This document shows positions 11,148-60,044 of a stretch of 64,000 bases of DNA, in pieces. The stretch is from Opitutia bacterium (GTDB taxonomy: Bacteria > Verrucomicrobiota > Verrucomicrobiia > Opitutales > Opitutaceae). The stretch lies in the NCBI GenBank assembly GCA_947475065.1, contig CANJLB010000003.1, positions 20,214 through 84,213 of the forward strand. Reading direction: 5' to 3'. Position 1 is the stretch's first letter. Each line of letters opens with the position of its first letter. The position numbers and the translations under genes are program-made. The notes below the pieces were generated by a model. That model did not search any database. It saw only the letters and a list, made by a program, of their open reading frames with translations, and had not been told where the DNA came from.

Positions 11148-12359
11148 ATGAACACACCCCGCCTTGCCGTGTTTTTGCTTGCCCTCGTCTCCGCCGGCCT
11201 GGCCTGCGCGCAGCCGGCCACCAACGCCGCCAACGGCGCCGTGCAGGTCGTTTCGCCCGAAGTGGCGGCCGACCGCTCGATCACCTTCCGCCTCTATGCG
11301 CCCAACGCCCAGTCGGTCACGCTCAATGGCGATTTTTTTGCCAGCAACAACAGCAACGGCCCCGCTTTGACCAAAGCATCCAATGGCGTCTGGTCACACA
11401 CCGTTCCGCCCCAGCCGCCGGGTGTCCATGGCTATTATTTTCGGATGGACGGCCTGCGCCTGCCCGACCCAAGCAACCTGCTGGTCTCGTCCAGCACCGA
11501 ATTTCTCAAAAGCTACGTCGAGGTGCCCGGCGACGCCACGCAGTTCACGGCCGTGCGCGAGGTGCCGCACGGCCAGTTGCACGAGGTCTGGTATAAAAAC
11601 GCCTCCCTCGGCCAGCGCCGCGTCGTCATCTACACGCCGCCCGGCTACGACCCCGCCGCCGCCCGCGCCTACCCAGCCATCTACCTCCTGCACTCTACCA
11701 CCGACAACGAGACCTTCTGGTCGCGCATCGGCCGCGTGAACTTCATCTTGGACAATCTTCTCGCCGACGGAAAGGCCAAGCCCATGCTGCTGGTCATGCC
11801 GTTCGGCCATGTCTCTGTGCCGCGCGGCCCCGAGGAAGGCGCCGGCGGCAACGACCTCTACGACGTAGCCGTCATCGGCAAGGACATCGTCGAAAACATC
11901 ATCCCCTTCGTCGAAAAACAATTTCATGCCGGCAGGTCTCCCGCCGACCGCGCCATCTTCGGCATGGCGATGGGTGGCTACCAAGCCATCACCATCGGGA
12001 TGAACTACGCCGGCACGTTCAGCTACGTCACAGCGACGAGCGCCAATTTCCGAGCCAACATGGATCTGGCCGCCAATTTCAAGAATTTGAATGTGGATGC
12101 CGCCAAGCGCGACATCAAATACCTCACCATGATGGCCGGCAACGCCGAATCCGGCAGCTTCCCGCAAAGCACGCGCGTGATCGAGTACTTTACCGGTCTC
12201 GGCTTAAAGAACGAGTGGATGACCCCGGAGGGCACGCATACGTGGCACAGCTGGCGCGGCTACATCCGTGAGATGTTCGAACGCAAATTTTTCTCCGACG
12301 ATCCCTATGCCGCACCGAAAATCACGGGTGGGCCCGCCGCCAACGCACCCGCGCGCTGA
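11148..12359 (+). CDS. secreted esterase (PF00756 'putative esterase'/CE1-like) with N-terminal CBM48-like domain
   Basis: Signal peptide MNTPRLAVFLLALVSAGLACAQP. N-terminal domain FRLYAPNAQSVTLNGDF...NGVWS, then the esterase core (YLLHSTTDNETFW...GMAMGGYQA). Paralogous to 29348 and 47505. Confidence 0.8.
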   Translation: MNTPRLAVFLLALVSAGLACAQPATNAANGAVQVVSPEVAADRSITFRLYAPNAQSVTLNGDFFASNNSNGPALTKASNGVWSHTVPPQPPGVHGYYFRMDGLRLPDPSNLLVSSSTEFLKSYVEVPGDATQFTAVREVPHGQLHEVWYKNASLGQRRVVIYTPPGYDPAAARAYPAIYLLHSTTDNETFWSRIGRVNFILDNLLADGKAKPMLLVMPFGHVSVPRGPEEGAGGNDLYDVAVIGKDIVENIIPFVEKQFHAGRSPADRAIFGMAMGGYQAITIGMNYAGTFSYVTATSANFRANMDLAANFKNLNVDAAKRDIKYLTMMAGNAESGSFPQSTRVIEYFTGLGLKNEWMTPEGTHTWHSWRGYIREMFERKFFSDDPYAAPKITGGPAANAPAR

Positions 12360-23332: not shown

Positions 23333-24723
23333 AATTTCCTGCCATGAAAATCGTCTTTCACGCCCTCCTTGGGTCCCTTGTGCCGCTCGTGTTGCTGGCC
23401 GTTGGCCTGCATTACTTCAGCCCTACAGCGCTGGCGGCGGTGCGGCCTGCCCTCACGCCTACTGCTCCACCCGTGCCCGACACACTCGACCTCGAGACTG
23501 CCGTCAAATACGCCGTCGAGCACAGCTTCACCATCCAGCAGGCCCGTGAGCGCATCCGCGAGCAGGAGGGCCTCATCGTTGCGGTCAGGGCGCAGGCGTT
23601 GCCGACGCTTTCGCTTGACGGCAGCTACACGCGCAACGATCCGGGTCTTGGCGGCGGCACCCCGCCCACCTATCAGAACTGGAGCATCGCCCTCGATGTC
23701 CGTCAGACCCTCTACGCCGGCGGCGCGATCACCAGCGCGCTCGACGCCCAGCGCTATGCCCGTGAGTCTGCGTTGCTCGACCTGCGCAGCACTATCAATC
23801 AGGCCTTGCTCGGGGTGCGGACGAAGTTCTACGCTGTTCTCTTCTCCCGCGAACAGATCAAGGTGCAGGAGCAGAGCGTCGATCTGCTGCAGGAGCAGCT
23901 CCGCAACGCCCAAAACCGCCGTGCCGCCGGCACCGTCTCCGACTTTGAGGTGCTCCGTGCCGAGGTCGAGCTCGCCAACGCCCAGCCTCCGCTCATCACC
24001 GCGCGTAACAACTACCGCCTCGCCATAGACGAGCTCCGCCAGTCCCTCGGCTATGACAACCGCACGCCGGACAATTTGAAAAAAACCCCCGAGTTCACGG
24101 GCACGCTCGACGTCACGCCCGCCACCTACGAGCTGCAGTCTGCACTCGACGCCGCCCGCCTGCACCGCCCCGAACTCCAGCGCCTCGCCAAAGTTGAGCA
24201 GGCACGCGGCGCGGCCATCCGTAACGCGCAGGCCGGCTACCGTCCCGAAGTTGCACTCGTCGGCGGGCTCGAATATAAAAAGGCCTTTGGCTCCAACAGC
24301 TTTGGTGACAGCGCGCACGGCTGGACGCTCGGGGTGCAGTCGAGCTGGGCGATCTTTGACGGTCACCTGACCGACGGCCGGGTCGCGCAGGCCCGCTCGC
24401 AGCTTGCACAGGCCCGGCTGGCGCGCGACGAGCAGACGCTGGCTGTCGAGGTGGAGGTGCGCCGCGCCCTCTCCTCGTTGCAGGAGGCCGCCGAACTCGT
24501 GGCGGCTGCGTCGCAGGTCGTGCGACAGGCTGAGGAAGCGCTCCGCCTCGCCACTGTTCGCAACCTTGCCGGGACGGCCACCCAGCTCGATGTGCTCTCG
24601 ACGCAGGTCGCGTTGACGCAGGCCCGTAACAACCAGCTCTCGGCCAACTACCGCCATGCCGTCGCCCTCGCCACCCTCCGGACGTCGCTCGGCGAGGCAG
24701 ATGCCTATGCGTCGGGCAACTGA
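23329..24723 (+). CDS. TolC-family outer-membrane efflux protein
   Basis: Signal peptide followed by two OEP repeats (LDLETAVKYAVEHSFTIQQA...; LQSALDAARLHRPELQ...). Its start overlaps the RND permease stop (operon). Confidence 0.9.
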   Translation: MKFPAMKIVFHALLGSLVPLVLLAVGLHYFSPTALAAVRPALTPTAPPVPDTLDLETAVKYAVEHSFTIQQARERIREQEGLIVAVRAQALPTLSLDGSYTRNDPGLGGGTPPTYQNWSIALDVRQTLYAGGAITSALDAQRYARESALLDLRSTINQALLGVRTKFYAVLFSREQIKVQEQSVDLLQEQLRNAQNRRAAGTVSDFEVLRAEVELANAQPPLITARNNYRLAIDELRQSLGYDNRTPDNLKKTPEFTGTLDVTPATYELQSALDAARLHRPELQRLAKVEQARGAAIRNAQAGYRPEVALVGGLEYKKAFGSNSFGDSAHGWTLGVQSSWAIFDGHLTDGRVAQARSQLAQARLARDEQTLAVEVEVRRALSSLQEAAELVAAASQVVRQAEEALRLATVRNLAGTATQLDVLSTQVALTQARNNQLSANYRHAVALATLRTSLGEADAYASGN

Positions 24724-24811
24724 GGCCCGGCCCGGTTTGTCCGCTGTGTGGCAATAGGATTGCGAAGCTGGGTCCGAGGTGATTTACCCTTCTGCCGTAT
24801 CCAACTGCCCT

Positions 24812-25630
24812 ATGAAACATCATCACATCGCATCCGCCTCGGGTATCGCCTTGTTTCTTGTCTGCACCGCCCTGCATGCGGCCGGCCAGCCCGCCGTCCC
24901 TGCGCCGGCACTCGCTTTGCCAACCGTGGCCGTCCCCCCCACGCTCAACGCGCTGACCGCAGCAGAAAAGGCTGCCGGCTGGGTTTTGCTTTTCGACGGC
25001 CAGACTCTTCAAAACTGGCGCGGCTACCGTGTGCAAGGTCCGCCGGCCGCCGGCTGGGAAATCAAGGACGGTTTGCTCAAGACCGTGCCGCGCGTGCGAG
25101 GGAGTGAGCTCATCACCCAGCGACAGTACACCGACTTTGAGCTGAGCTGGGAATGGCGCGTGGCCGAAGGCGCAAACAACGGCGTGAAATATTTTGTCAC
25201 CGAGGAGCGGCCCGGCGCTCCCGGCCCCGAATACCAGATGATTGACGATGCCCGGCATTCCGATGCCAAACGCGGTCCGCTTTACCAGACCGGCGCATTT
25301 TATGACGTGCTTCCGCCCGCCGCCGACAAGCCGCTCAAACCTGCCGGTGAGTGGAACTCGTCGCGGCTCTTGGTGCAGGGCTCCCATATCGAGCACTGGC
25401 TGAACGGTCAAAAAATCCTCGCATACGAATTGGGCAGCCCCGAGGTGAAGGCAGGTCTGGCCCGAAGCAAATTCAAAGATCAGCCTGGCTTTGGAGACAA
25501 AATCACCGGCCATATCATGCTCACGTATCACGACGACGAGTGCTGGTTTCGCAATTTCAAGGTGCGTGAGCTGCCCCTGGCCGCGCCGGCAGCTCCGGTG
25601 GTGCAACCGGCCGCTCGGCCAAAAACCTGA
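24812..25630 (+). CDS. DUF1080 (3-keto-disaccharide hydrolase-like, concanavalin fold) secreted protein
   Basis: Signal peptide, then GWVLLFDGQTLQNWRGY...GWEIKDGLL...ANNGVKYFV...HIMLTYHDDECWFRNFKV, which is the canonical DUF1080 sequence. Confidence 0.8.
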   Translation: MKHHHIASASGIALFLVCTALHAAGQPAVPAPALALPTVAVPPTLNALTAAEKAAGWVLLFDGQTLQNWRGYRVQGPPAAGWEIKDGLLKTVPRVRGSELITQRQYTDFELSWEWRVAEGANNGVKYFVTEERPGAPGPEYQMIDDARHSDAKRGPLYQTGAFYDVLPPAADKPLKPAGEWNSSRLLVQGSHIEHWLNGQKILAYELGSPEVKAGLARSKFKDQPGFGDKITGHIMLTYHDDECWFRNFKVRELPLAAPAAPVVQPAARPKT

Positions 25631-25711
25631 GAAACCCGGGTACGCCTCCCGTCCGGCCGGGCAAGATTTTCGTTTTTCCCGGCTTGGCGTTCGTCTGCCT
25701 CTGCCTTTCAG

Positions 25712-26176
25712 TTGGAAACCATGTCCGCTGTCACCGATCTCATTCCCCACCGTCCGCCGTTCCTGTTTGTTGACGACATTCTGACCGAGTCCGCCGACAG
25801 CCTCACTGCGCGCCGCACATGGCGCGCCGACGAGGACTTTTACCGCGGCCATTATCCCGCTGCGCCGATCACGCCCGGCGTGCTCCTGTGTGAGGCGGTG
25901 TTTCAGACGGGCGCGCTCTTCATGGCTCGGCAGGCGCAGGCGGCGGGCGGCCAGCCCGGCGAGGGCGTGCCGCTGCTGGCGAAGATCAGCGACGTGCGCT
26001 TCCGCAACCCCGTTTATCCCGGCGACGAAACCCTCATCGAGGTGAAAAAAAAGGAGGCGCTCGGCGGCTTCACGATGATGAGCGGAGCCATCAAGAAGGC
26101 CGACGGCACCCGTGTGCTGACCGTGGATTTCGCCGTCGCGTGGAAGACGCCCATGGGCGGCCAGACCAAGCCCTGA
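25712..26176 (+). CDS. FabA/FabZ-like hotdog-fold dehydratase
   Basis: HRPPFLFVDDI...YRGHYPAAPITPGVLLCEAVFQTGA is the (3R)-hydroxyacyl-ACP dehydratase signature. Confidence 0.8.
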   Translation: METMSAVTDLIPHRPPFLFVDDILTESADSLTARRTWRADEDFYRGHYPAAPITPGVLLCEAVFQTGALFMARQAQAAGGQPGEGVPLLAKISDVRFRNPVYPGDETLIEVKKKEALGGFTMMSGAIKKADGTRVLTVDFAVAWKTPMGGQTKP

Positions 26177-26222
26177 GAAATTTATGCAGGAAGCCATAAA
26201 CCCCGGAATTTTGATTTCAGCC

Positions 26223-26266: not shown

Positions 26267-27091
26267 ATGACCGATTTCCTCCAGCTCACCGGCAAAACTT
26301 TTCTCGTCCTGGGTGTCGCCAACCGCAAGAGTGTCGCGTGGTTTGTCGCGAAGTCGCTGGAGGAGCAGGGCGCGCGCGTCATTTACGGCATCCGCTCCGA
26401 GGCGCGCAAGCAAGCCCTCGGCACCCAGCTCGCCGGTAAGTCAGTCTTTGTGTGCGACGTGGAGCAGGAGGGCGCGGCGGAGCGGCTCGCGGCCGAGGTC
26501 GCTGCGGCCGGCCACGCGCCACTGCACGGCCTTGTTCATTCCATCGCGTTTGCCAATTACAGCGAGGGCTTCCAGCCGTTTCACGCGACGAAGCGGAAGG
26601 ATTTTCTGCAGGCCACCGCGGTCTCGGCCTTTTCACTTGTCGAGCTGGCCCACGCCTTCAAGCCGCACTTCGCGCGCGACGCCTCGGTTGTGACGATCGG
26701 CATCTCGTCTCTGCTCGTCACGCCGGACAATTACGGCTACATGGGCCCGATCAAGGCCGCGCTGGAATCGGCCACGCGGTTTCTTGCCAAATCGTTCAGT
26801 ACCGACAGCGAGGTGCGCTTTAATGTCATTGGCAGCGGTCCGCTCAAGACCAGCGCGTCGGCAGGCATCCCCGGATATCTTGAAAGCTACCTCTATGCCG
26901 AGAAAATGACCTTCCGCAAACGCGCCCTTGGCACCGCCGAGGTCGCCAACGTCGCGCTGTTTCTCCTCAGCGAGCGCAGCAGTGGCGTAACCGGCACCAC
27001 CCTGGTGGTGGATGCCGGGCTGGGGCTGAACTATTTCGACCAGGAAATCATCCGCCTCGCCATGCGGCCCGAAGCGAAGAACAGAGGCTAA
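26267..27091 (+). CDS. enoyl-ACP reductase FabI-like (SDR family)
   Basis: LVLGVANRKSVAWFVAKSLEEQGARV (GxxxxxSxA FabI-type nucleotide motif) and Y/K catalytic region. 274 aa. Confidence 0.8.
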   Translation: MTDFLQLTGKTFLVLGVANRKSVAWFVAKSLEEQGARVIYGIRSEARKQALGTQLAGKSVFVCDVEQEGAAERLAAEVAAAGHAPLHGLVHSIAFANYSEGFQPFHATKRKDFLQATAVSAFSLVELAHAFKPHFARDASVVTIGISSLLVTPDNYGYMGPIKAALESATRFLAKSFSTDSEVRFNVIGSGPLKTSASAGIPGYLESYLYAEKMTFRKRALGTAEVANVALFLLSERSSGVTGTTLVVDAGLGLNYFDQEIIRLAMRPEAKNRG

Positions 27092-27100
27092 AATTCTTCG

Positions 27101-28135
27101 ATGATTTTCAAAAACACCTGCATCGAGTCTCTCGCTGTCACTCTGCCGGATGAGATTCTCACCTCGGCGGAGATCGAGAAACGGCTGCGCCCGTTATACG
27201 AACGGCTGAAATTGCCCGAAGGCCGGCTGGAGCTGATGACAGGCATCCGCGAGCGGCGTGTCTGGCCGACCGGCACACGGCCATCCGACGCGAGTGCCGC
27301 CGCCGGCCGCGCCGTGCTGGCGCAGTCGGCGTTGCGTGCGGATCAGGTTGAACTGTTCATCCACGCGGCGGTGTGCCGCGACATGCTGGAGCCGGCGACG
27401 GCGGCGTTTGCCCACCGCAAGATCGGTCTGCCGGCGACGGCGCAGATCTTCGATGTGTCCAACGCCTGCCTCGGCTTCCTCAACTCGCTCACCATCGCGG
27501 CGGGCCTGATTGAGTCAGGACAGATCAGGTGCGCGCTCGTCGCCGCGGGCGAAAACGGGGGGCCGCTCGTCGAGCAGACGCTGCACACGCTTCTCACCCA
27601 ACCGCTCGATCGCAACGGCATCAAGCCGTACTTTGCAAACCTCACCATCGGCTCCGGCGCGGTGGCGGCTGTCGTCTGCCATCGCGATCTCGTCCAAGGC
27701 CCTGCGCACCGGCTGATCGGCGGCGTGGCGCGCGCGGCCACGCGGCATAGCGAGCTTTGCCAGGGCGACACGCATGGCGCGGACTCGTTGGCGATGCAGA
27801 CCGACAGCGAGGCGCTGCTCATCGCCGGCCTTGAGCTCGCGCAGGAAACATGGCGCGACTTTACGGCGCTGACGGGCTGGAGCGCGGCGGGCGTGGGTCG
27901 CATTGTCTGCCATCAGGTCGGCAGCACGCACCGGCGGAAGCTTTACGAGGCGCTTGGGCTGGAGGTGGTGAAGGATTTTTCGACATTTGAGACGCTCGGC
28001 AACACCGGCTCGGTCGCCTTGCCGGCCACGCTGGCCGCCGCCATCGCGGCGGGCGCGGTGAAAAACGGCGACAAGGTCGCGCTGCTCGGCATCGGCAGCG
28101 GCCTGAACTCACTGATGCTCGCGCTGGAATGGTGA
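27101..28135 (+). CDS. 3-oxoacyl-ACP synthase III (FabH-like, thiolase fold)
   Basis: Active-site Cys in FDVSNACLGFLNSL, C-terminal His/Asn region (CHQVGSTHRRKL...GNTGSVALP). 344 aa. Confidence 0.85.
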   Translation: MIFKNTCIESLAVTLPDEILTSAEIEKRLRPLYERLKLPEGRLELMTGIRERRVWPTGTRPSDASAAAGRAVLAQSALRADQVELFIHAAVCRDMLEPATAAFAHRKIGLPATAQIFDVSNACLGFLNSLTIAAGLIESGQIRCALVAAGENGGPLVEQTLHTLLTQPLDRNGIKPYFANLTIGSGAVAAVVCHRDLVQGPAHRLIGGVARAATRHSELCQGDTHGADSLAMQTDSEALLIAGLELAQETWRDFTALTGWSAAGVGRIVCHQVGSTHRRKLYEALGLEVVKDFSTFETLGNTGSVALPATLAAAIAAGAVKNGDKVALLGIGSGLNSLMLALEW

Positions 28136-28217: not shown

Positions 28218-29114
28218 ATGAGCACCGCCGCTTCCTTCCCCGACTGGCTCCGGCCGCTCTATCCCTTCACTCCACAGGTGTTCACCACGCCGCGCGGCGC
28301 ACGGATGAGCTATCTCGACGAAGGCCCGCGCGCCGACGAGGCCGTGATCATGCTGCATGGCAACCCGACGTGGTCATTTTACTACCGCCGGCTGGTCTCT
28401 GCCCTCGCTCTGAAGCTTCGCTGCGTCGTGCCCGACCACATCGGCATGGGACTCTCCGAGAAGCCGCAGGACTATCCCTACACGCTGGCGACGCGCATTG
28501 ACGACGTGATGGCGCTGGTCGCGTCACTCGGGCTGAAAAAAATCCACCTTGTTGTCCACGACTGGGGAGGAGCGATTGGCTTCGGCCTGGCGGCGCGGTG
28601 TCCTGAGCTGATCGGCCGGCTGGTCATGCTGAATACGGCGGCCTTTCCTTCGCCGCATATCCCGGCGCGCATCGCACTCTGCAAGACGCCTTTCCCTGGT
28701 ACGGCCATCGTGCGCGGCCTGAACGGCTTCGCCGGCCCGGCCGTATGCATGAGTATGAACCGCCGCCAGCTCACGGCCGAAGAGCGAGGTGGCTATCTCT
28801 TTCCCTACGACTCCTGGGCGAACCGCGTGGCGGTGGATGCTTTTGTGAAAGATATCCCGATGGACGCGGCGCATGCGAGTTGGGGGGAGCTGGAGATGGC
28901 GGCGGCAGGGCTGAGCAAATTTTCCGATCGGCCTGCGCTCATCGTGTGGGGAGGCAAGGATTTTTGCTTCCACGACTGGTATTTCGCCGAATGGAAACGC
29001 CGGCTGCCGCAAGCCGCCACCCACTATCTGGGCGATGCCGGCCATTATGTGCTTGAGGACGCTGACACGGAGGTCGTGCCATTGATCGCGAAGTTTCTTC
29101 TGGCCTATGACTAA
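28218..29114 (+). CDS. alpha/beta hydrolase (haloalkane-dehalogenase-like fold)
   Basis: HGNPTWSFYYR...VVHDWGGAIGF (nucleophile elbow)...GHYVLED. Confidence 0.85.
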   Translation: MSTAASFPDWLRPLYPFTPQVFTTPRGARMSYLDEGPRADEAVIMLHGNPTWSFYYRRLVSALALKLRCVVPDHIGMGLSEKPQDYPYTLATRIDDVMALVASLGLKKIHLVVHDWGGAIGFGLAARCPELIGRLVMLNTAAFPSPHIPARIALCKTPFPGTAIVRGLNGFAGPAVCMSMNRRQLTAEERGGYLFPYDSWANRVAVDAFVKDIPMDAAHASWGELEMAAAGLSKFSDRPALIVWGGKDFCFHDWYFAEWKRRLPQAATHYLGDAGHYVLEDADTEVVPLIAKFLLAYD

Positions 29115-29301
29115 AACTGTATTGTTGTAGCAATGAATCATATGGGAGTTTGGTTTGGCTAGGACATAGCACAGGAGTGTCACCTATGTACCCAGATCAA
29201 CCCCGGCCTAGCCCTTCCGGCCGACGACAAAACTTTCTCTCGCCCCGCGCCCCGCGCCATGGTTAAACTCAGCCCCGTTCTCACCGCATTTCGTTTCTCC
29301 T

Positions 29302-29311
29302 CCCCCCCCCC
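29302..29311. repeat. C10 homopolymer tract ~36 bp upstream of the esterase start
   Basis: ttctcctccccccccccgagtc, in the 5' leader of the 29348 gene. Confidence 0.65.
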
Positions 29312-29347
29312 GAGTCTCCGTCCCCGTCATCGCATTCCCTTTCCGTC

Positions 29348-30577
29348 ATGTCCACGCTCACCGCCTCCCGTCGCCTCGCCGCCGCCCTGCTCGCCGCCGT
29401 CTGCGCCCTCCCGCTGCCTGCCCAGCCGGCCGCTCCCGCCCCCGCGCCAGCGGCCCCGCCTGCGCGTGGTCCCGGGCCCGGCGGCGGCCGGGGCGGTCGC
29501 GGTGGGGGTGGTGGCGCGCTCAACTCTCCCGAGGTCAACGCCGCCGAGCGCACCTTCACCGTGCGCTTTCGCGCACCCAACGCCCAGACCGTCACCGTCA
29601 TCGGTGAGCTCGACGGACGGGAGCACCCCATGACCAAGGCCGACAACGGCGTCTGGTCAGCCACCATCGGTCCCCTCGCGCCCGACACCTACAACTACCA
29701 GTTTCGCGTGGACGGCATCGTCGCCATGGACCCCGCCAACCCCAATGTGAAGCTCGGCTTCGGCTCGTTCCCGCCCGCCAATCTCGTCGAGATCCCCGGC
29801 AGCGAGACCGCCTTTCAGGACACGCGCGATGTGCCGCACGGCACCGTTCGCCTCGAGACCTACCACGCCAAATCCCTTGGCGGTGCGGCCCGCACGCTCT
29901 GGATCTACACCCCGCCCGGCTACGACGCCCGCACGGACCGCTACCCCGTGTTCTACCTTCTGCACGGCTCCGGCAACACCGATTCGAGCTGGTTCCTCAC
30001 CGGCCGCGAGAACACCATTCTCGACAACCTCATCGCCGACGGCAAGGCCCGGCCCATGATCCTCGTCAACCCCCTCGGCTATGCCCGCACCGGCATCGGC
30101 ACCGGCCCCGACCGCCCGCTTAACGCCGAGGCCGCCGGCCCCGGCTTCTGGTTCGAGCGCGAGGTCTTGCAGGACATCATCCCTTATGTGGACGGCAAGT
30201 TCCGCACCCTCGCCGATGCCGACCACCGCGCGCTCGGCGGCCTCTCGATGGGCGGCGGCCACACCATCCAGATCGGCTTCCCCAACCTCGACACTTTTCA
30301 CTCCCTTGTCATCATGAGCTACGGCGTCGCCAACTCCGACCAGACCTATCCTGCCTTCTTCGCCGACTCCGCCGCGACCAACCAGAAGCTGAAGTTCCTC
30401 TGGCTTGGCGTCGGCTCCGACGACACCCTCGTGGGCAACGGTGCCCGCGCGCTGGAGGCCACGCTCACCGCCCGGGGGATCAAACACGCGCCGTTCTGGG
30501 TGCTGCCCGGCGCGCGCCACGAATGGGTCGTCTGGCGTTACGCCCTGCGCGACGTCGCGCCGCAGTTGTTCCGCTGA
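29348..30577 (+). CDS. secreted esterase (PF00756-like) with CBM48-like N-domain, paralog 2
   Basis: Signal peptide, Gly/Arg-rich tract, FRAPNAQTVTVIGEL...NGVWS, esterase core (YLLHGSGNTDSSWF...GLSMGGGH). Paralogous to 11148 and 47505. Confidence 0.8.
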   Translation: MSTLTASRRLAAALLAAVCALPLPAQPAAPAPAPAAPPARGPGPGGGRGGRGGGGGALNSPEVNAAERTFTVRFRAPNAQTVTVIGELDGREHPMTKADNGVWSATIGPLAPDTYNYQFRVDGIVAMDPANPNVKLGFGSFPPANLVEIPGSETAFQDTRDVPHGTVRLETYHAKSLGGAARTLWIYTPPGYDARTDRYPVFYLLHGSGNTDSSWFLTGRENTILDNLIADGKARPMILVNPLGYARTGIGTGPDRPLNAEAAGPGFWFEREVLQDIIPYVDGKFRTLADADHRALGGLSMGGGHTIQIGFPNLDTFHSLVIMSYGVANSDQTYPAFFADSAATNQKLKFLWLGVGSDDTLVGNGARALEATLTARGIKHAPFWVLPGARHEWVVWRYALRDVAPQLFR

Positions 30578-30579
30578 TA

Positions 30580-30642
30580 TTTCTGATTCCACGACTGGTA
30601 TCTTGTCGAATGGGTCGTGACATTGATCGCGAAGTAACTTCA
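30580..30642 (+). pseudogene. decayed partial copy of the 3' end of the alpha/beta-hydrolase gene
   Basis: ttccacgactggtatcttgtcgaatgg + gtcgtgacattgatcgcgaagt matches 28968-28994 + 29073-29094 of the hydrolase gene. An exact 78-bp internal deletion and a few substitutions separate them. Confidence 0.6.
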
Positions 30643-31051
30643 TCACGCCTGGCGTTCACAGGAATTATCGTGCGCATCTGACCTGAAAAAAGCGAGTTGC
30701 GAAAACTAGGGTGTCGGGATGCTTGATCGCCGGAGCCGTGTCCCCATGTTCGCTTCCGTCTGAGTTCTTTCACCGCCTAAGGCGACGCCGCTTCCTCGGC
30801 GTCAACACGGGGGAACCAATATCCGCTGCGCTCTCTCGCGGCGGACGGGGCGAACGGACGCAGGCGACTGCGCCCAAGGTCACTTCCTAGGACCAAGCCC
30901 GTCAGCTAACCTCGTCGGCAATGGGAAGGGTGATCCACTAGGGCTCCCGCCTCGGCGGGATGTCCCCACGGTCGCTCCAACGCAATCGCACCGTCGTGTG
31001 CATACGGGAATACCGTGTGTGCCGCCGGGGCACTTCACGGAGATTAATCCT

Positions 31052-32950
31052 ATGACCGCCTTGTTCTCATCCCCCTCGGATGTCGTGCGCCTGCTCGCGC
31101 ACCTCTTGCTCATCGGCGCGGGCCTCGTGCTCGTGGGCTTCGCCTGTCAGAGCCGCCGCCCTGCCGCCCGCCTCTGCTTCGGTGCGGTGGCGCTCGCCTT
31201 TGCCGTCGCCGCGATCCTGCTGGCCGAGAGTTGGCCGGAGCGCGCGCTGCTGCTCTCCGGCGGCCTGATCTTCGCACCGGCGCTGCTCGGCCTGGTGGTC
31301 ATTCGCGAAAGCCAGGTCGGCGTCGTCATCAAGAAGTTTTCCCCGCGTTCGCTGCCTGCCGGCCAGTTCATCGCGCTCGACGGCGAGGCTGGCTACCAGG
31401 CCGACACGCTCCCGCCCGGGGTGCATTTCGGCCGCTGGTTCTGGCAGTTTTCCATCGTGAAATTTCCGGTGGTGGTCGTACCGCAGGGCGAGGTGGCGCT
31501 CGTGGTCGCCGCCGCCGGCATACCCATCCCCGCCGAGCGCATCCTCGCCAAAGTGGTCGCCTGCGACAGCTTTCAGGACGCCCGCAAGTTTCTGCTCGGC
31601 GGCGGCGAGAAAGGCCGCCAGCTCGGCCTGCTTACCGCCGGCACCTACCGGATCAACCCGGCAATGTTTCAGGTCATTACCGGCCGTCCGATCACGCTCA
31701 TCCAGCCGGATCAGGTTGGCATCGTCACGACGCTCGACGGACGCCCGATTGACCCTGGCGAGATCGCCGGGCCGTTATTGGGCGGTCACGAAAACTTCCA
31801 AAATGCCCAGGCGTTCATCGCGGGCGGCGGCCGGCGCGGGCTGCAGGAACAGGTGCTGCTCTCCGGCTCCTGGAACCTCAACCCGTGGTTCGCGCAGGTC
31901 GAGCAGGTGCCGATGCTCAGCATCCCCATCGGCTCCGTCGGCGTGGTCATCTCCTTTGTCGGCCTGGCACACGAGGATGTGAGCGGCGCGGCCTTCAAGC
32001 ATGGTGATCTTGTCAACGTGGGCCACAAGGGCGTGTGGGTTTCGCCGCTCTATCCCGGCAAGCACCCGGTCAACACCCGCGTGATGCGCGTCGAGCTCGT
32101 GCCCACCACCAACATCGTCCTCAACTGGGCCAACCGCACGGAGTCGCACCACTTCGATGAAAAGCTCAGCTCCATCACGGTCCGCTCCAAGGATGGCTTT
32201 GCGTTCAACCTCGATGTGGCGCAGATCATCCATGTCGGCGCGCCCGACGCGCCCAAGGTCATCTCGCGCATCGGCTCGATGCAGAACCTGGTGGACCATG
32301 CCCTCCAGCCGATTGTTGGAAACTACTTCCGCAATTCCGCGCAACACCACACCGTGCTGGATTTCCTCAATGCCCGGAGCGACCGCCAGGCCGAGGCTTC
32401 GGCCCATATCCGCATCGCGCTCGCTGCCTATGACGTGCAGGCCATTGACACGCTCATCGGGGACATCACGCCGCCCGCCGAACTGATGAAAACCCAGACC
32501 GACCGCAAGATCGCCGAGGAGGAAAGGAAGACCTATGAGACGCAGGAGGCCGCTCAACGCCAGCGGCAGGAACTCGTGAAAGCCACCGCACTCGCCAACA
32601 TCCAGCAGCAGATGGTGGACGCCGACCAGGGCGTGCGCATCGCCGAGCTGCATGCGCAATCCGCCATCCGCTGCGCCAACGGCGAGGCCGAGTCCACGAA
32701 GCTCCGCGCACTGGGTGAGGCCGACGCCATCCGGGCCACTGGCAACGCCAAGGCCGAGGCCTACCGCGCCGGGGTCGAGGCGATCGGCGGCGCGAACTAC
32801 ACGCTCATGCAGCTCACGCAGACGCTCGCCGAACGAAACATGCGCATCGTGCCCGACGTGTCGGTCACTGGTGCGCAAGGCGGCAACGGCCTGCTCGACT
32901 CGATGCTTGCGCTGCTCGCACGGGAGAAAACCGACCGGAAGGCCGCCTGA
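31052..32950 (+). CDS. SPFH/band-7 (flotillin-like) membrane protein
   Basis: Two N-terminal TM helices, SPFH core and a long C-terminal coiled coil rich in EA repeats (flotillin-like). Started at the internal Met. Confidence 0.75.
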   Translation: MTALFSSPSDVVRLLAHLLLIGAGLVLVGFACQSRRPAARLCFGAVALAFAVAAILLAESWPERALLLSGGLIFAPALLGLVVIRESQVGVVIKKFSPRSLPAGQFIALDGEAGYQADTLPPGVHFGRWFWQFSIVKFPVVVVPQGEVALVVAAAGIPIPAERILAKVVACDSFQDARKFLLGGGEKGRQLGLLTAGTYRINPAMFQVITGRPITLIQPDQVGIVTTLDGRPIDPGEIAGPLLGGHENFQNAQAFIAGGGRRGLQEQVLLSGSWNLNPWFAQVEQVPMLSIPIGSVGVVISFVGLAHEDVSGAAFKHGDLVNVGHKGVWVSPLYPGKHPVNTRVMRVELVPTTNIVLNWANRTESHHFDEKLSSITVRSKDGFAFNLDVAQIIHVGAPDAPKVISRIGSMQNLVDHALQPIVGNYFRNSAQHHTVLDFLNARSDRQAEASAHIRIALAAYDVQAIDTLIGDITPPAELMKTQTDRKIAEEERKTYETQEAAQRQRQELVKATALANIQQQMVDADQGVRIAELHAQSAIRCANGEAESTKLRALGEADAIRATGNAKAEAYRAGVEAIGGANYTLMQLTQTLAERNMRIVPDVSVTGAQGGNGLLDSMLALLAREKTDRKAA

Positions 32951-32971
32951 GATCCGTCCCGCACCGCAGAC

Positions 32972-32996
32972 CTGCCCGCAAGGGCAGGGCTTTCCC
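32972..32996. terminator. putative bidirectional intrinsic terminator between convergent genes
   Basis: cctgcccgcaagggcagggcttt hairpin between the flotillin and malQ stops. Confidence 0.4.
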
Positions 32997-33135
32997 GGGC
33001 ACCCGCGTCTCTCCCTCCATTTCTATCATCATCGGCCGTGTCCCTGAGGACGCGGAAACGGCATACTCTGCGGTGCAGCTGGTTCGGGTCGGTTTTCAAT
33101 TCGCGCGACCCGTGCCTCGAACTCGGCGTTTTCGT

Positions 33136-34764
33136 TTAAGATGAGGTGGTGCGTGCGGCAAAGGGCAGGCGGCCGTAGAGGCGGCCGAGTTCGCGAAGAT
33201 ACGGCGCGCTTTCCCGATGAAGTTTTTCAAGCTGCCCGGGAGCGTAGCGCCATTGCCAGTTGCCATCGGGTTTGCCCGGCAGATTGAAGCGAGCCTCACT
33301 GCCGAGGCCAAGGCAGTCTTGCAGCGGAATCACCGCGAGGTTGCTCACGGCCGTGTAGGCGGCACGGATGAAATCCCAGCCGACCTCGCCGCCGCTGACG
33401 CGCAGATAACGGCGGAGATGGTCGCGGGTTTTTTCGTCGGACGCCGCATACCAGCCGGGGGTGGTGTCGTTGTCATGGCTTCCGGGATAGATGACGCTGT
33501 TGGCACGGAGATTGTGGGGCAGATAGGCGTTGTCACTGCTGCCGCCAAAAGCGAACTGAAGGATCACCATGCCGGGCAGGCCCGTGGCGTCGCGCAGGGC
33601 GAGCACACCCGGCGTGAGGTCACCAAGATCTTCGGCAATGAGGCGCGCTTCCGGCAGGGCGGCGCGCACAGCGCGGAAGAACGCGAGACCGGGGCCAGGT
33701 TTCCACTGGCCGGTGCGCGCGGTGGGCGCACCGGCGGGGATTGACCAATAGGAGTCGAAGGCCCGGAAATGGTCAATGCGGACAATGTCGCAGAGCGCGA
33801 AGTTGGCGCGCAGGCGGGCGAGCCACCACGAATAATTATCAGCGGCATGGGCGGACCACTCGTAGAGCGGGTTGCCCCAGAGCTGGCCGTCGGCCGAGAA
33901 ATAGTCGGGCGGCACCCCGGCGACAGCGAGCGGGCGGCCGGTCTTTTGGTCGAGCTGGAAAAGCTCGGGACGTGACCATGCGTCGGCGCTGTCGAGAGCG
34001 GCGAAGATGGGCGCGTCACCGATAAGCGCGACTCCGGCGTCGCGCGCCTTGGCGCGCACCTGCGCCCACTGACCGAAGAAGAGGTATTGCACGAAAGCGT
34101 AGGCTTCGGCGCGTTCGAGGAGGGTGGCGGCAAGCGGGCTGGCCTTGGCGCGGGCATAAAAACGGATATCCTCCGGCCAGGTCCACCACGGCTGGCCGTT
34201 CCGGTGATCCTTGAACGCCATGTAGAGCACATAGGCGTCGAGCCAGTGCGCGTGCGCGGCCCGAAACGCGGCAAAATCGCCGTAGGGTTGGGCACCACGT
34301 GCACGAAAGTTTTTATGGGCCCGAAACAGCACGGGCCATTTCGCGGCGTAAAGCCAGCCGTAGTCTACACGGTCGCTGGGCAGTGCGCGCAGCGGCGCAA
34401 GGTCGGCGTCGGTCAGCAACCCGGCGGAGACGAGCGGCCGTAGATCAATGAGGTAGGGGTTACCGGCAAACGCTGAAAAGCATTGGTAAGGCGAGTCGCC
34501 ATACCCAGTTGGCCCGAGCGGGCAGACCTGCCAGTGGCCGATGCCCGCGTCGCGCAGAAATGCGATCCAATTGTCCACCGCGCCATCGAGCACGCCAACG
34601 CCTTGGTCGGACGGAAAGGACGTGGGATGCAGAAGCGCGCCGGCACTTCGTGCGGAGAGCCAGTCGAAAAGTTTTGAGGCGACGTCCGGCGATGTTACAG
34701 GATTCACAGGTAGGGATGGGGTGTAGCCTCCAAGTTTCCCAGAAGCAACCGATTCCTCGATCAA
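33136..34764 (-). CDS. malQ: 4-alpha-glucanotransferase (amylomaltase, GH77)
   Basis: GALLHPTSFPSDQGVGVLDG N-terminal motif and GH77 catalytic regions (GDAPIFAALDSAD, WGNPLYEW). 542 aa. Confidence 0.9.
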   Translation of the reverse strand: MIEESVASGKLGGYTPSLPVNPVTSPDVASKLFDWLSARSAGALLHPTSFPSDQGVGVLDGAVDNWIAFLRDAGIGHWQVCPLGPTGYGDSPYQCFSAFAGNPYLIDLRPLVSAGLLTDADLAPLRALPSDRVDYGWLYAAKWPVLFRAHKNFRARGAQPYGDFAAFRAAHAHWLDAYVLYMAFKDHRNGQPWWTWPEDIRFYARAKASPLAATLLERAEAYAFVQYLFFGQWAQVRAKARDAGVALIGDAPIFAALDSADAWSRPELFQLDQKTGRPLAVAGVPPDYFSADGQLWGNPLYEWSAHAADNYSWWLARLRANFALCDIVRIDHFRAFDSYWSIPAGAPTARTGQWKPGPGLAFFRAVRAALPEARLIAEDLGDLTPGVLALRDATGLPGMVILQFAFGGSSDNAYLPHNLRANSVIYPGSHDNDTTPGWYAASDEKTRDHLRRYLRVSGGEVGWDFIRAAYTAVSNLAVIPLQDCLGLGSEARFNLPGKPDGNWQWRYAPGQLEKLHRESAPYLRELGRLYGRLPFAARTTSS

Positions 34765-40602: not shown

Positions 40603-40723
40603 TAGTGGTATAGTTTTGGTCGGTGGTAGGTTGCGCGCTCGCCGCGCAACTCCGGCGACAGAGGGCAAACGTGGCGTGACGAGCACGCCACCTACCCCGG
40701 AAAATTCAAACTGTACCACTACC
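40603..40723. mobile_element. BIME/MITE-like element (REP-A + REP-B palindromes) flanked by 10-bp direct repeat GGTCGTTGGG
   Basis: The target-site-like duplication lies at 40593-40602 and 40724-40733. Terminal inverted repeats tagtggtatagtttt / aaactgtaccacta. Internal palindromes gtaggttgcgcgctcgccgcgcaac and gtggcgtgacgagcacgccacctac are the same units that flank the RAYT at 60 kb. Confidence 0.65.
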
Positions 40724-41116
40724 GGTCGTTGGGCGATCACCGGGACCGGTTCCAGCTCCTTCAGGCATCCCTTCCCACCGGCGTCTTGAACTCGGCGCTG
40801 AACGTTCGTCTGTGTTTTGGCATGGAGGACTCTGCCCCATCAATCCGTCCCCCGCCTTCGGCAAAGGCTGCGCCGCTACGCTTCCCCTGGCTCACAACAA
40901 CTCACAAAAATCGGCCTGCCCCCTCGGCTTGGCCGCCGCCCGCGCGCGGGCCGCAAGCGGCCTGGCGTCCGTTTTTCGTCACAACGATAGCCCAATGCGA
41001 AAGATTTTCCGAGGGATTCGGGCGGCAGCGGGCGTCTTTGGGGTGAAGCCCATCCACCCGACCACATAAACCTGCATCCTTCTCCCTTCAAAATTTTCAC
41101 CACCCAAGTTGCCTTC

Positions 41117-43376: not shown

Positions 43377-43457
43377 GTCACCCCTGCGCTGGCAGCACGA
43401 AGATGCCCGGCATATCGGCCAGGGCGCGGCACCGCCCAGGTTTGCACAGCGGTTGTC

Positions 43458-43562
43458 CGGTGGTAGGTTGCGCGCTCGCCGCGCAACTCGGGCGACAGAG
43501 GGCAAACGTGGCGTGACGAGCACGCCACCTACCCCGGAAAATTCAAACTGTGCCACCACCGG
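43458..43562. mobile_element. BIME/MITE-like element, second copy (~95% identical core to 40621-40723)
   Basis: cggtggtaggttgcgcgctcgccgcgcaactcgggcgacagagggcaaacgtggcgtgacgagcacgccacctaccccggaaaattcaaactgtgccaccaccgg. Confidence 0.65.
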
Positions 43563-43900
43563 CCGGCGGCGGCACCATCACATGGCCCATGACAGCGGCG
43601 AACAGGGTTTCAGATTATTCAAGAGTGGAGGACCGAATCCTGTCCCGGAAGGCTCGTTGCCCGTACCGCATCAAGTTATGCCAACGTCTGTTAACATTGG
43701 GACGATGGGCCCGATAGCGCCGGGAAGGTTCGGTCCCGGCTCTCCCGAGCCTTTTGGGCTACACTGAGCGGCGCGCCCAGCGGGCACGCCCTACCTTGGG
43801 ATCACCCGATTAGTCTGTAGCTCAGCAAAATCCCCGTCTCCGCAGCCTGAGCCCCTTGGGCGGCTCCCCTGCCCTGCCGGCCATCCAGCCGCCTCACGCC

Positions 43901-48584: not shown

Positions 48585-48830
48585 TGGTGCTTGGTTCCTA
48601 GTTCGGGATTCCTGGTTTCTTGGTTTCTGAATTACGACCGGATTTTGAATGGCTGATGTCGGCCTGCGGCCTCGGTAACAGAAGCCAGGAAGCCAGGAGG
48701 GAAAAGCTGTTACCGAGCGAAGCGACAGGCAAGTCGCACGCCAAAGCTGAAAGGCTGAAAGCTGAGGCAGGAGGCCAGAGGTCAGAGGCCCGAGGAGGCG
48801 GAGGACGTGGGCATCTTGCGATGCTGTGAG
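48585..48830. repeat. intergenic repeat family A, copy L
   Basis: Modules: cctggtttcttggtttctgaatt (48611-48633); gaatggctgatgtcggcctgcggcctcggtaacagaagccagga (48647-48690) with internal hairpin ctcggtaacag/ctgttaccgag (48671-48717); aaagctgaaaggctgaaagctgag (48743-48766). Confidence 0.55.
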
Positions 48831-50443: not shown

Positions 50444-50715
50444 GAGCTGAGAGCTGGCGGAAAAGCTGAGAGCTGAAAGGCTGAAAGCTGAAATCGGAGG
50501 CTAGGAATCGGAGGGCAGCGTGCTTGCTTCTTGGTTTCTTGGCTTCTGAATTTTACCGTCTGGATTGGTCGGAGGGATCGCGGAAATCGGAGAAGATAAT
50601 GGCTGATGTCGGCCTTGCGGCCTCGGTGACAGAAGCCAGGAGACCGAAGACGGAGGGTGCATCGCGGAGAAGTGGAACGGCGGAAAAGCTGAGAGGCGAG
50701 ATCGAGATCGGATGA
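50436..50715. repeat. intergenic repeat family A, copy R (same modules as L, begins at the CrtI-like stop codon)
   Basis: gctgagagctgagagctgg...gctgaaaggctgaaagctgaaat; cttggtttcttggcttctgaatttt (50530-50553); aatggctgatgtcggccttgcggcctcggtgacagaagccaggag (50598-50642). Confidence 0.55.
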
Positions 50716-50956
50716 ACGCGCTACGAGCAGACCGCCGACCCAGCTGCAAGAAACTGAGATGCACCCAGCGGGTTCGGCACGCCAGTTTGGCCTTGATCAG
50801 ACTTCGGGCCAAGGCCAGCATCAGCCAACTGAAACGGATGGATCACCGCAGCCTCGACGCCGCCTGGTGCCACGCTGCGGAAGCTTGGCTCGTCTGCTAA
50901 GGCCTGATCACCGTCTCCTCAACCCAAAAAAGTGTTACCCTATTATCCTAAACTTT

Positions 50957-51532
50957 ATGAAATATTTAATCATACTTTTAATTGCAATCAACACGTTATC
51001 TCGAGGCGAGTCCATTTCAAGCAACGATGTTCATGGTGAAGCAGTCCAATCTGGCTCGATTTCATGGAAAATTAGTTCTAGCGCCAATAGTTTATATTTT
51101 CTATACGAACTCAGTTCGGATGATTACTTAATTATATCGATAAGCAATGTTTCAAGCAAACCGGTAACTGTTCCTGCTGAAATGAACATAGTCAAAAGAT
51201 GGGACCAAATATTTTATGACAGACCTTTGCTTTTTTTACATTATAAAAATGGAAATGGAGACACTATCGGTGAATATTCTGTAGTGTCTAGTTTTTTAAT
51301 AAACATGAGCGATCCCAGATCTTCGTTTGTTCTTTTGCCGGGAACAACAATATCAGCGAGATATGATCTTTCGCTTGTTTTTCCCCTTAATCGCAAGAGG
51401 GATTTTTTTTCCAAATCTTCCCTGGACCTTTGTTCATATATGATTGAAGTTCTATTGCCTGATGCAACTTTTAAAAGTCTTGTGAAGCAAGATTCGAAAT
51501 GGAAAAACTTTAGCTCAAGAATAAAGTTATAA
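50957..51532 (+). CDS. hypothetical secreted protein encoded in a ~33% GC islet
   Basis: 192-aa ORF, MKYLIILLIAINTLSRGES signal-like N-terminus, Ser/Asn/Ile-rich. GC ~33% versus ~65% genome-wide. No homology is recognisable by eye. Confidence 0.55.
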   Translation: MKYLIILLIAINTLSRGESISSNDVHGEAVQSGSISWKISSSANSLYFLYELSSDDYLIISISNVSSKPVTVPAEMNIVKRWDQIFYDRPLLFLHYKNGNGDTIGEYSVVSSFLINMSDPRSSFVLLPGTTISARYDLSLVFPLNRKRDFFSKSSLDLCSYMIEVLLPDATFKSLVKQDSKWKNFSSRIKL

Positions 51533-53020: not shown

Positions 53021-54526
53021 TCACTCGCCGCCGGTGGCGACGCGCATGACACCGGCCTCGGTCCACTCCGCGCGCGGGCGCACGGCGGCCAGCTCGCCCC
53101 GGCACATCACGCCGATGGTGTCGCACAGCCCGAGCAGCTCGGGCAGGTAGGAGCTGACGACGACGACGGCCTTGCCCGACGCGGCGAGGTCGCCGATGAG
53201 CTGGTAAATCTGGGCCTTGCTCCCCACGTCAATGCCGCGCGTCGGCTCGTCGAGCAGGAAAATTTTCGCGGGGTGCTCCAGCAGGCGCGCGAAGGCGACC
53301 TTCTGCTGGTTGCCGCCGGAGAGCTCGCCGATGGGTTGCGCAGCGTCGCGGCATTTCACCCGCAGCTCGTCCACCCAGCGCTGCGCGGTCGCGCGCTGGC
53401 GCCCGCCGCTGATGAAGCCGAAGCGGCCGAAGCGATCCTGTTTCGTGAGCGTCAGGTTGTCGGCGATGGACTGCGAAAGCATCAGCCCCTCCTCCTTGCG
53501 GTTCTCGCTCAGAAAGCCGACGCCCTCCGTCCAACGCGCGCGCGGCGTGGAACGGCCGGCGGGCGCCCCGACGACGCAGACCTCGCCAGCGGCCAGTTCG
53601 TCCAACGAGAAAATCGCGCGCAGCAAATCCGTGCGGCCCGCGCCGATCAGCCCGCCGAGGCCGAAAATCTCGCCCGCCCGCACCTGCAAGGTGGCGCACC
53701 TGAGGCGCGGCGGGCTGACGGCGGCCCTGACCTCCAGCACGACCGCGCCGGTGGCGTGCGCGGCGCGCGGGTAGAGGTCTTTCACCTCGCGGCCGGTCAT
53801 CAGCGTGACGAGGTGGTCGAGCGTCGCGCCCTTCATCTCGCCGGAGCCGACGGTCTCGCCGTCCTTGAGCACGGTGTAGCGGTCGGCGATCCGGCGGCAT
53901 TCCTCCAGAAAATGGCTGATGTAGATGACGCCGACGCCCTGCGCGCGCAGGCGGCCAATGGTGGCGAAGAGCTTTTCGGTGTCGGCCTGCGTGAGGCTGC
54001 TCGTCGGCTCGTCCATGATGAGAATTTTGGGCTGCTTGAGGAGCGCGCGGGCGATCTCGATGACCTGCTGCTCCGCGATGGAAAATGCTCCCGCCGGGCG
54101 GCCGAGGTCGAGCGCCTCGTGGCCGAGCTGCGCAAGCGCGGCGCGGGCGCGCTCGCGGGAGGCCGCACGGTTGATCCAGCCGGCACGGGCGGACTCGTCG
54201 CCGAGCAGGATGTTCTCCTGCGCGCTGAGGTGCAGCGCGAGGTTGAGCTCCTGGTAGATCATGGCGACGCCCTTGAGCCGGGCATCGTGCGGGTTCTCCG
54301 GCAGGTAGGGCCGGCCGGCGAGCTCCATCGAGCCGGCGTCGGCCCGGTGCGCGCCGCTGAGGATTTTCATCAGCGTGCTCTTGCCCGCGCCGTTCTCGCC
54401 GATGAGCGCGTGAACCTCGCCGGGCGCGATGCCGAAGGAAACCCCGCGCAGCGCGTGGGTGGCGCCGAAGCTCTTGCGGATGCCCGCCAGCCGGAGGCTC
54501 GCGGCGGTGGTGAGAGGGTTTGTCAT
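53021..54526 (-). CDS. sugar ABC transporter ATP-binding protein with two NBDs (RbsA/XylG-like)
   Basis: Two Walker A motifs (GENGAGKST; GLIGAGRT), two ABC signatures (LSGGNQQKV etc.), 501 aa. Its ATG start codon lies inside a 33-bp repeat copy. Confidence 0.9.
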   Translation of the reverse strand: MTNPLTTAASLRLAGIRKSFGATHALRGVSFGIAPGEVHALIGENGAGKSTLMKILSGAHRADAGSMELAGRPYLPENPHDARLKGVAMIYQELNLALHLSAQENILLGDESARAGWINRAASRERARAALAQLGHEALDLGRPAGAFSIAEQQVIEIARALLKQPKILIMDEPTSSLTQADTEKLFATIGRLRAQGVGVIYISHFLEECRRIADRYTVLKDGETVGSGEMKGATLDHLVTLMTGREVKDLYPRAAHATGAVVLEVRAAVSPPRLRCATLQVRAGEIFGLGGLIGAGRTDLLRAIFSLDELAAGEVCVVGAPAGRSTPRARWTEGVGFLSENRKEEGLMLSQSIADNLTLTKQDRFGRFGFISGGRQRATAQRWVDELRVKCRDAAQPIGELSGGNQQKVAFARLLEHPAKIFLLDEPTRGIDVGSKAQIYQLIGDLAASGKAVVVVSSYLPELLGLCDTIGVMCRGELAAVRPRAEWTEAGVMRVATGGE

Positions 54527-54553
54527 TCTGAGCGCAGCGAAGAATCCAGTGCG
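54521..54553. repeat. 33-bp repeat copy 1 (tgtcattctgagcgcagcgaagaatccagtgcg)
   Basis: Overlaps both the GIY-YIG stop/C-terminal 10 codons and the ABC ATPase start codon. It is identical to copy 2 at 54893-54925. Confidence 0.8.
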
Positions 54554-54892: not shown

Positions 54893-54977
54893 TGTCATTC
54901 TGAGCGCAGCGAAGAATCCAGTGCGAATCTCGATGGCGGACATCCAACTGGATTCTTCGCTGCGCTCAGAATGACAA
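54893..54977. repeat. 33-bp repeat copy 2 plus inverted copy 3 forming a ~30-bp-stem hairpin upstream of GIY-YIG
   Basis: tgtcattctgagcgcagcgaagaatccagtgcg (54893-54925), a 22-nt loop, then ctggattcttcgctgcgctcagaatgaca (54948-54977), the perfect reverse complement. Confidence 0.8.
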
Positions 54978-59783: not shown

Positions 59784-59890
59784 TGCGGGAAAGTGGGGCC
59801 ACGCACACGGCCCGTGGCAAGCCGGATGACTGCCGTGTGATCAGTCCCGCGTGGCAACATGCGGAGAGCGCAACCGACGCGGAATTCCCG

Positions 59891-60035: not shown

Positions 60036-60044
60036 ACGGACCAA

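Follow-up and report, generated by a model that had tools for sequence, protein, structure and literature searches.

A decayed copy of a hydrolase gene 3' end lies behind a relocated esterase gene in an Opitutaceae bacterium

We analyzed a 64,000-nucleotide stretch of DNA, hereafter the window, from an Opitutia bacterium (contig CANJLB010000003.1, positions 20,214 to 84,213), in which a gene for an alpha/beta-hydrolase (HYD) is followed by one for a secreted esterase (EST). The 63 bp at 30579-30641, which begin two bases beyond the EST stop codon (TGA, 30575-30577), are a decayed copy of 28960-29100, the last ~47 codons of HYD, and we hold with high confidence that this segment is a genuine scar of duplication within the genome. 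A preliminary description of the window, made from the letters alone, had pointed to a ~63-bp segment after the esterase stop that matched the HYD end with an exact 78-bp deletion, bracketing EST and its leader between two copies of the same sequence. Alignment bore out its coordinates, the length of the segment and the deletion, and also the bracketing (28960-29100 and 30579-30641).

The remnant behind the esterase gene

Pairwise alignment resolves the match into two collinear blocks, 28960-28994 against 30579-30613 (30/35 identical) and 29072-29100 against 30613-30641 (26/29 identical), with 56 of 64 aligned bases identical in both together; a repeat finder run over the window yields these blocks as well. 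The remnant lacks exactly 78 bp of the intact copy, either 28994-29071 or 28995-29072, an ambiguity that is explained by the position of the deletion junction on a 2-bp GG microhomology (28993-94 and 29072-73). This GG reads as the signature of an illegitimate deletion at microhomology.

The blocks are short, and this is the only point in favor of chance similarity without homology, an explanation that we consider practically negligible. Against it, the blocks are collinear and adjacent, and lineage-specific bases are common to the remnant and the intact copy. The 23-mer block alone gives a BLAST E value of 3.6e-5 within the 64-kb window, and the local alignment score of 45 compares with a maximum of 26 in 300 shuffles, none of which reached 45. 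Furthermore, an nhmmer DNA profile of the HYD 3' end, made from 80 relatives with the window left out, matches 30579-30616 (E = 2.9e-4), the sole significant match in 29101-33140, the 4 kb between HYD and the convergent gene for a GH77 4-alpha-glucanotransferase. We also considered 33039-33061 (19/23 against 29048-29070) as a third hydrolase relic but take it as chance, given that its score was reached by 2 of 300 shuffles; neither the protein nor the DNA profile of the HYD 3' end detected it. Its counterpart, 29048-29070, falls within the stretch absent from the remnant, and 33039-33061 itself stands at the expected former meeting point of the HYD end and GH77. The repeat search found no other coding-end duplicate in the window.

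The remnant shares 56 of 64 bases with the window's own intact copy and at most 45 of 64 with any of nine relatives compared, the nearest of which (loci L001-L005; L-numbers denote the loci and contigs compared) have 77-81% HYD protein identity. Bases private to the window are common to both copies, for example at 29081-82 and 29090-93. Wherever the copies differ (eight sites), most relatives agree with the intact copy, which places the changes on the remnant's branch. Taken together, the shared lineage-specific bases and the changes on the remnant's branch show an intragenomic duplicate rather than foreign DNA, and the remnant is a decaying duplicate of this genome's own HYD end, younger than the split from the nearest sampled relatives. 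The preliminary description had taken the duplication as a sign against vertical inheritance. A duplicate of the genome's own HYD, however, speaks for a rearrangement within the genome and says nothing on a horizontal origin of the esterase.

The eight substitutions over 64 aligned bases (~12%) fall on first, second and third codon positions two, two and four times. In the HYD frame the remnant reads YF*FHDWYLVEW / VVTLIAK*, where asterisks mark stops and the two in-frame stops arose by TGC>TGA and TTT>TAA. It has no start codon, and the upstream 247 codons of HYD are absent. The substitution pattern looks neutral, with two of the eight changes creating stops. The remnant thereby combines what characterizes a pseudogene fragment, namely, significant collinear homology, lost coding capacity and same-genome origin, and it is a pseudogene fragment of HYD, very probably without function.

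Could the remnant nevertheless be kept for a present function, as a terminator of the esterase transcript, as part of the promoter of the following SPFH gene or as a small RNA? CACGAC (30590-95) and GTCGTG (30614-19) within it are able to pair as a short hairpin, and there is no other terminator-like site between EST and the riboswitch that precedes the SPFH gene. However, no T-run stands behind this hairpin, the folding of 30560-30765 is no more stable than that of shuffles (z = +1.58), and no Rfam match and, in a promoter scan, no promoter-like site was found. Relatives also manage without the remnant, with homology of their SPFH units beginning at the riboswitch, and the neutral-looking substitutions, which created stops, speak against selection for a function, which we regard as very improbable. 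Folding and Rfam likewise revealed no RNA structure or known RNA family in either the esterase leader or the remnant.

Two newcomers at a conserved locus

HYD, whose relatives are named in databases as haloalkane dehalogenase or cis-3-alkyl-4-acyloxetan-2-one decarboxylase (OleB-like), is the last gene of a conserved run of dehydratase, SDR, KASIII-like and HYD genes, an order that is kept in 80 relatives. We scanned one genome per species and compared 80 Opitutaceae loci with the SDR, KASIII-like and HYD run, 73 of which were informative in that they had enough downstream sequence. HYD is followed directly by the convergent GH77 gene in 49 of the 73, with 6-318 bp between the matches; GH77 follows after 0.5-3.2 kb of other DNA in 8, and something else follows HYD in 16. 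Even at E <= 1e-5, none of the 80 relatives has a homolog of EST or of the SPFH gene within 6 kb. Nor does any of them carry a partial copy of its own HYD 3' end downstream, and this lack of a second such scar fits a single rare event.

From this comparison, the ancestral state is HYD beside the convergent GH77 gene, and the ~4 kb at 29115-33135 are specific to the window's lineage, comprising two units, EST and SPFH, with the relic between them; both genes are newcomers at the locus. The preliminary description had read the pattern as insertion or gene capture by duplication. Its lineage-specific arrival is supported by the relatives that lack it here, none of which has a similar scar, but a second unit, the riboswitch with the SPFH gene, has also been relocated into the space between HYD and GH77, and capture in one step is not proved by the bracket alone.

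At least four independent metagenome assemblies show the arrangement with 100% identity over stretches of 2.7-5 kb, and it is therefore fixed in this population. Three independent Logan contigs (L082-L084) that are 100% identical to the window all end at 30919, inside the riboswitch; rather than a biological boundary, this is likely a point where assembly stopped because the sequence is conserved or recurs within the community. Among the relatives, a small YjbQ-like open reading frame (ORF) lies downstream of HYD in L001 and a LysE-like gene in L003, five loci (L004, L016, L020, L026 and L057) have 2-3-kb inserts between HYD and GH77, and the junction in L005 is likewise variable. Such variable junctions suggest that the convergent HYD/GH77 junction may be a permissive site for insertions.

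The EST product is laid out as a signal peptide, a Gly/Pro-rich linker, a CBM48 domain and a PF00756 esterase domain. Both Pfam scores are above gathering (Esterase, 60.6 bits with a cut-off of 22; CBM_48, 32 bits with a cut-off of 22.4), and the protein is a putative esterase with more than 5000 homologs, many of them named enterochelin esterase-like by the Joint Genome Institute. The gene at 11160-12290, 'esterase paralog 1,' is a distant relative, with 35% amino acid identity to EST by tblastn. The closest orthologs (84-92% amino acid identity) occur in at least four other contexts: with a ferredoxin-reductase-like gene and a 691-amino-acid unknown gene (L085 and probably L166), convergent with an SSF transporter gene near PIG-L genes (L086 and L167), between the genes for SAICAR synthase and an MFS transporter (L088), and between a DUF3237 gene and an FAD monooxygenase gene (the contig of P0009). 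As synteny is partly conserved among them (EST with SSF in L086 and L167, EST with the 691-amino-acid gene in L085 and L166), these are ordinary chromosomal genes and not a hopping cassette.

Nucleotide homology to the ortholog loci stops exactly at the shared EST stop codon, and the C terminus ...APQLFR* is conserved. Upstream, homology starts at ~29202-29211 in two loci (L085 and L166), which resemble each other from the same point. These limits indicate that EST arrived with ~145 bp of its own 5' region, the C-rich tract included. That tract, C10 at 29302-29311, has the counterpart C5TC4 in L085. The leader had been described beforehand as atypical and AT-richer, with the C10 tract; only its first 87 bp are AT-rich (29115-29201, GC 0.425), while the remaining 146 bp, C10 included, have a GC content of 0.65 and are EST's own conserved 5' region. 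At the esterase ortholog loci, we found neither HYD-like sequence after the stop nor flanking direct repeats. The spacers at 29115-29201 and 30642-30763 and the one behind the SPFH gene are without homology in the fetched loci or in the rest of the window.

Two further ideas on EST were dropped. A foreign origin was considered from its composition, with a GC content at third codon positions (GC3) of 0.89 and a third-position GC skew of -0.48, the most extreme in the window; other genes reach -0.46, and the measure is not decisive. Phase variation at C10 finds no evidence, the four independent assemblies being 100% identical across the tract and the ortholog reading C5TC4. The window holds only two runs of at least eight G or C, G10 at 2894-2903 and the C10 tract.

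The second newcomer begins with a predicted cyclic di-AMP (c-di-AMP, ydaO-type) aptamer, whose RF00379 match at 30764-30935 scores 52.4 bits against a gathering score of 38 and covers model positions 1-134 of 134. None of the 77 metagenomic relatives of the SPFH gene that we fetched has HYD, EST or GH77 in its vicinity. At the nucleotide level, they resemble the window from the onset of the riboswitch (30764-30775), in one case from 30705, and Rfam places a c-di-AMP aptamer immediately before the SPFH gene in 16 of the 17 relatives scanned. Homology from the riboswitch onward and the occurrence of the SPFH gene elsewhere in relatives together indicate a relocated, self-contained, regulated gene unit. 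The SPFH proteins behind the aptamer have ~630-650 amino acids (30764-32950 in the window; loci L089-L121), and L093 and L111 carry a second aptamer upstream. A full-text literature search returned no paper mentioning a c-di-AMP (ydaO) riboswitch together with SPFH or band 7, and the SPFH gene is a possible unreported member of the c-di-AMP regulon.

Routes to the bracketed arrangement

The reading that we favor, at about even chances, is that the EST unit was inserted together with a 141-bp duplication of its target and that the downstream copy then decayed. In this scenario, HYD would have ended beside the convergent GH77 gene in the ancestor, and the riboswitch/SPFH unit would have come to lie between the two first; as the relic separates it from EST, this unit was probably already in place when EST arrived. 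Later, EST with ~145 bp of its own 5' region, ending at the stop codon, would have entered near the HYD 3' end by illegitimate (non-homologous) recombination, duplicating 141 bp of the target. A possible route is a replication template switch to the esterase locus with a return 141 bp behind the departure point; alternatively, a staggered break may have been filled in. The upstream copy would have stayed joined to HYD and under selection, whereas the downstream copy, startless and functionless, would have decayed by eight substitutions, two of them creating stops, and by the 78-bp deletion at GG. This decay would have cut the uninterrupted repeat homology to 15 and 16 bp, perhaps guarding EST from loss by recombination. 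The edges of the repeats are the edges of the novel DNA (between 29100 and 29101 and between 30578 and 30579), and three novel junctions therefore suffice to explain everything. A single event behind both the insertion and the duplication is our inference, as are the sequence in which the two units arrived and the route taken at the molecular level.

Several points weigh against an insertion. In bacteria, an insertion that duplicates more than 100 bp of its target is a rare event next to tandem duplication. The insertion model, like its competitor, must accept as coincidence that the insert stops within two bases of the EST stop codon, and it leaves the 87-bp AT-rich spacer at 29115-29201 unexplained. 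Finally, the search turned up neither an empty-site nor an intermediate allele, the nearest HYD homolog among 5.8 billion proteins being only 81% identical, and thus the pre-insertion sequence and the junction microhomologies are not readable.

By themselves, the repeats that bracket EST do not prove that the insertion made the duplication: a tandem duplication and a later partial deletion would look no different. EST would then already have stood beside HYD when the 1619 bp at 28960-30578 were tandemly duplicated by unequal exchange, joining 30578 to 28960, and an illegitimate deletion from the equivalent of 29101 onward would have left a HYD fragment that subsequently lost 78 bp more. Such a history accounts for the joint between 30578 and 30579 exactly as it stands, requires an intragenomic remnant, as found, and draws on commoner events, in a region that has demonstrably undergone illegitimate deletion (the 78-bp gap at GG). 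Among spontaneous rearrangements in bacteria, none is commoner than tandem duplication (e.g. Reams and Roth). On the other hand, this history requires about five novel junctions against the three of an insertion and leaves the arrival of EST unexplained, the endpoint of the duplication must fall by chance within two bases of the EST stop, and there is no trace of a second leader or esterase copy behind the remnant. Tandem repeats of 1.6 kb also normally collapse precisely by homologous recombination, without a scar. On balance, we regard this history as a serious but rather unlikely alternative to insertion with target duplication.

Direct repeats of a gene 3' end around lineage-specific DNA are also the geometry of a genomic island, and direct repeats of the target 3' end indeed stand at both borders here, at 28960-29100 and 30579-30641. 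A site-specific integrative element might have entered at the HYD 3' end with its own copy of that end, and the island and its integrase might later have been lost, leaving EST between attL- and attR-like repeats. We give little credence to this explanation. The interval between HYD and GH77 holds no integrase, excisionase or other mobile-element gene, only EST and SPFH, and a 141-bp repeat is long for an att core. Unlike a diverged copy borne by an element, the two copies share the lineage's private substitutions. In addition, the EST orthologs are ordinary chromosomal genes with partly conserved synteny, and none of the 80 relatives shows this site used with a repeat. A Pfam scan of the bracketed gene for a recombinase finds only CBM48 and Esterase, and no further ORF fits within 29115-30578.

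Compared with known kinds of element, the feature is a gene relic or flanking-duplication scar, which is a known kind, and an ordinary rearrangement of low interest. As in junctions of the fork stalling and template switching (FoSTeS) or microhomology-mediated break-induced replication (MMBIR) type, and in long target-site duplications at non-transposon insertions, novel DNA lies between direct target duplications, element-encoded ends and enzymes are lacking, and short microhomology is present at an associated deletion; the difference is that the mechanism here is read from the end product alone, with the microhomologies of the insertion junctions hidden for want of a pre-insertion allele. 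Relics of tandem duplication of the type discussed by Reams and Roth are likewise short, startless, stop-ridden intergenic fragments of a neighbor, of intragenomic origin and decaying by substitutions and small deletions, but only a hydrolase fragment survives here, and no relic of a second EST copy is detectable. Islands at gene 3' ends (attL/attR) and Campbell-type single-crossover integrations also leave the target 3' end twice, once intact and once displaced beyond the insert. In contrast to these, the insert here is one housekeeping-type gene of 1.5 kb without an integrase or mobility gene, the repeat is a lineage-identical 141 bp, and the site is not reused.

Insertion sequences (ISs), transposons and integron cassettes similarly place a single gene in different contexts in different genomes, but terminal inverted repeats, a transposase and an attC-like structure are all lacking here, and the duplication measures 141 bp. 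Target-site duplications of ISs and transposons are typically 2-15 bp. The search for a transposase with terminal inverted repeats found only EST and SPFH in the 4-kb interval and no inverted repeat pairing the ends of the insert. The search for an attC site after EST found that the post-stop region folds no better than shuffles and is not shared with the ortholog loci.

A more specific version of insertion with target duplication is that a promoter-bearing single gene was copied in by an MMBIR-like template switch, with the 141-bp target duplication and independently of mobile elements, and that the HYD/GH77 junction served as a permissive landing site that took the EST and riboswitch/SPFH units in succession. 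We put this forward tentatively, as a possibility that we doubt. If it were true, the scar would preserve, in nature and in datable form, a gene relocation in Verrucomicrobiota that took place without mobile elements, which would be of modest interest.

Feature map, other observations and meaning

The coordinates of the features around the scar are collected in Table 1. For the SPFH gene, we give the start called in L081, a contig identical to the window (ATG, 31052); the longest ORF extends back to GTG 30998. A 694-amino-acid ORF on the minus strand at 24113-26197 was rejected as a spurious antisense ORF without Pfam match, lying over the plus-strand genes at 24779-25630 and 25712-26176. Its apparent conservation in relatives arises because it is the mirror image of these two real genes.

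Table 1. Features between the genes upstream of HYD and the GH77 gene (window positions)
Feature	Position	Strand	Basis
3-keto-disaccharide-hydrolase-like gene	24779-25630	+	Pfam; gene calls of identical contig L081
FabA/ApeI-like dehydratase gene	25712-26176	+	Pfam; L081 gene calls
SDR gene	26267-27091		Pfam; L081 gene calls
KASIII-like gene	27101-28135		Pfam; L081 gene calls
Alpha/beta-hydrolase gene HYD, 298 amino acids	28218-29114	+	Pfam Abhydrolase_1, E=2.2e-27
Intact copy of the duplication (141 bp), with its end 14 bp short of the HYD stop	28960-29100	+	Alignment to 30579-30641
78 bp missing from the remnant	28995-29072	+	Read from sequence
AT-rich spacer, 87 bp, GC 0.425	29115-29201	none	Composition
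Native 5' region of EST (presumed promoter and 5' untranslated region), 146 bp, GC 0.65	29202-29347	+	Homology to L085 and L166
Secreted esterase gene EST, 409 amino acids	29348-30577	+	Pfam; tblastn; stop shared with orthologs
Decayed copy of the HYD 3' end (remnant)	30579-30641	+	Alignment; nhmmer profile
Unique spacer from remnant to riboswitch	30642-30763	none	SPFH-unit homology of one relative reaches back to 30705
c-di-AMP (ydaO-type) riboswitch aptamer, SPFH leader	30764-30935	+	Rfam RF00379
SPFH/Band 7 membrane protein gene	31052-32950	+	Pfam Band_7, E=2.7e-26; L081 gene call
GH77 4-alpha-glucanotransferase gene	33136-34764	-	Pfam, E=5.4e-159

Elsewhere in the window, a REP-like family of intergenic palindromes occurs at 40616-40728, 43453-43565, 59887-60040 and 60576-60707, with the core GTAGGTTGCGCGC...GCGCGCAACCTAC paired with GGTGGCGTGCTCGTCACGCCAC. 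Within the family, a composite of 113 nt recurs with 95% identity at a distance of 2.8 kb, and the longest ORFs running over these elements are probably over-extended. The ORF at 50759-51532 (GC 0.40 and GC3 0.36, against a window average GC of 0.64) is probably a recently acquired foreign gene; purine-rich direct repeats of 44 nt at 48745-48788 and 50471-50514 flank the gene that precedes it. An exact 33-nt direct repeat, TGTCATTCTGAGCGCAGCGAAGAATCCAGTGCG, stands at 54521-54553 and 54893-54925, 372 bp apart. Finally, a 54-nt direct repeat (91% identity; 57911-57964 and 58922-58975) lies just 3' of two adjacent minus-strand genes, 57990-58832 and 58989-59783; it may serve both genes as a terminator or 3' element, or point to tandem paralogs.

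For the biology of this lineage, the finding means that EST and the SPFH gene under riboswitch control came only recently to a locus otherwise conserved across Opitutaceae. The proper annotation of 30579-30641 is a hydrolase gene relic, belonging to no gene and to no regulatory element. In a small and clean way, the scar illustrates single-gene reshuffling without mobile elements; it has little import beyond annotation, although it could help to order rearrangement events if closer genomes appear. The more useful by-product is the conserved pairing of riboswitch and SPFH gene, a possible and apparently undiscussed output of c-di-AMP signaling.

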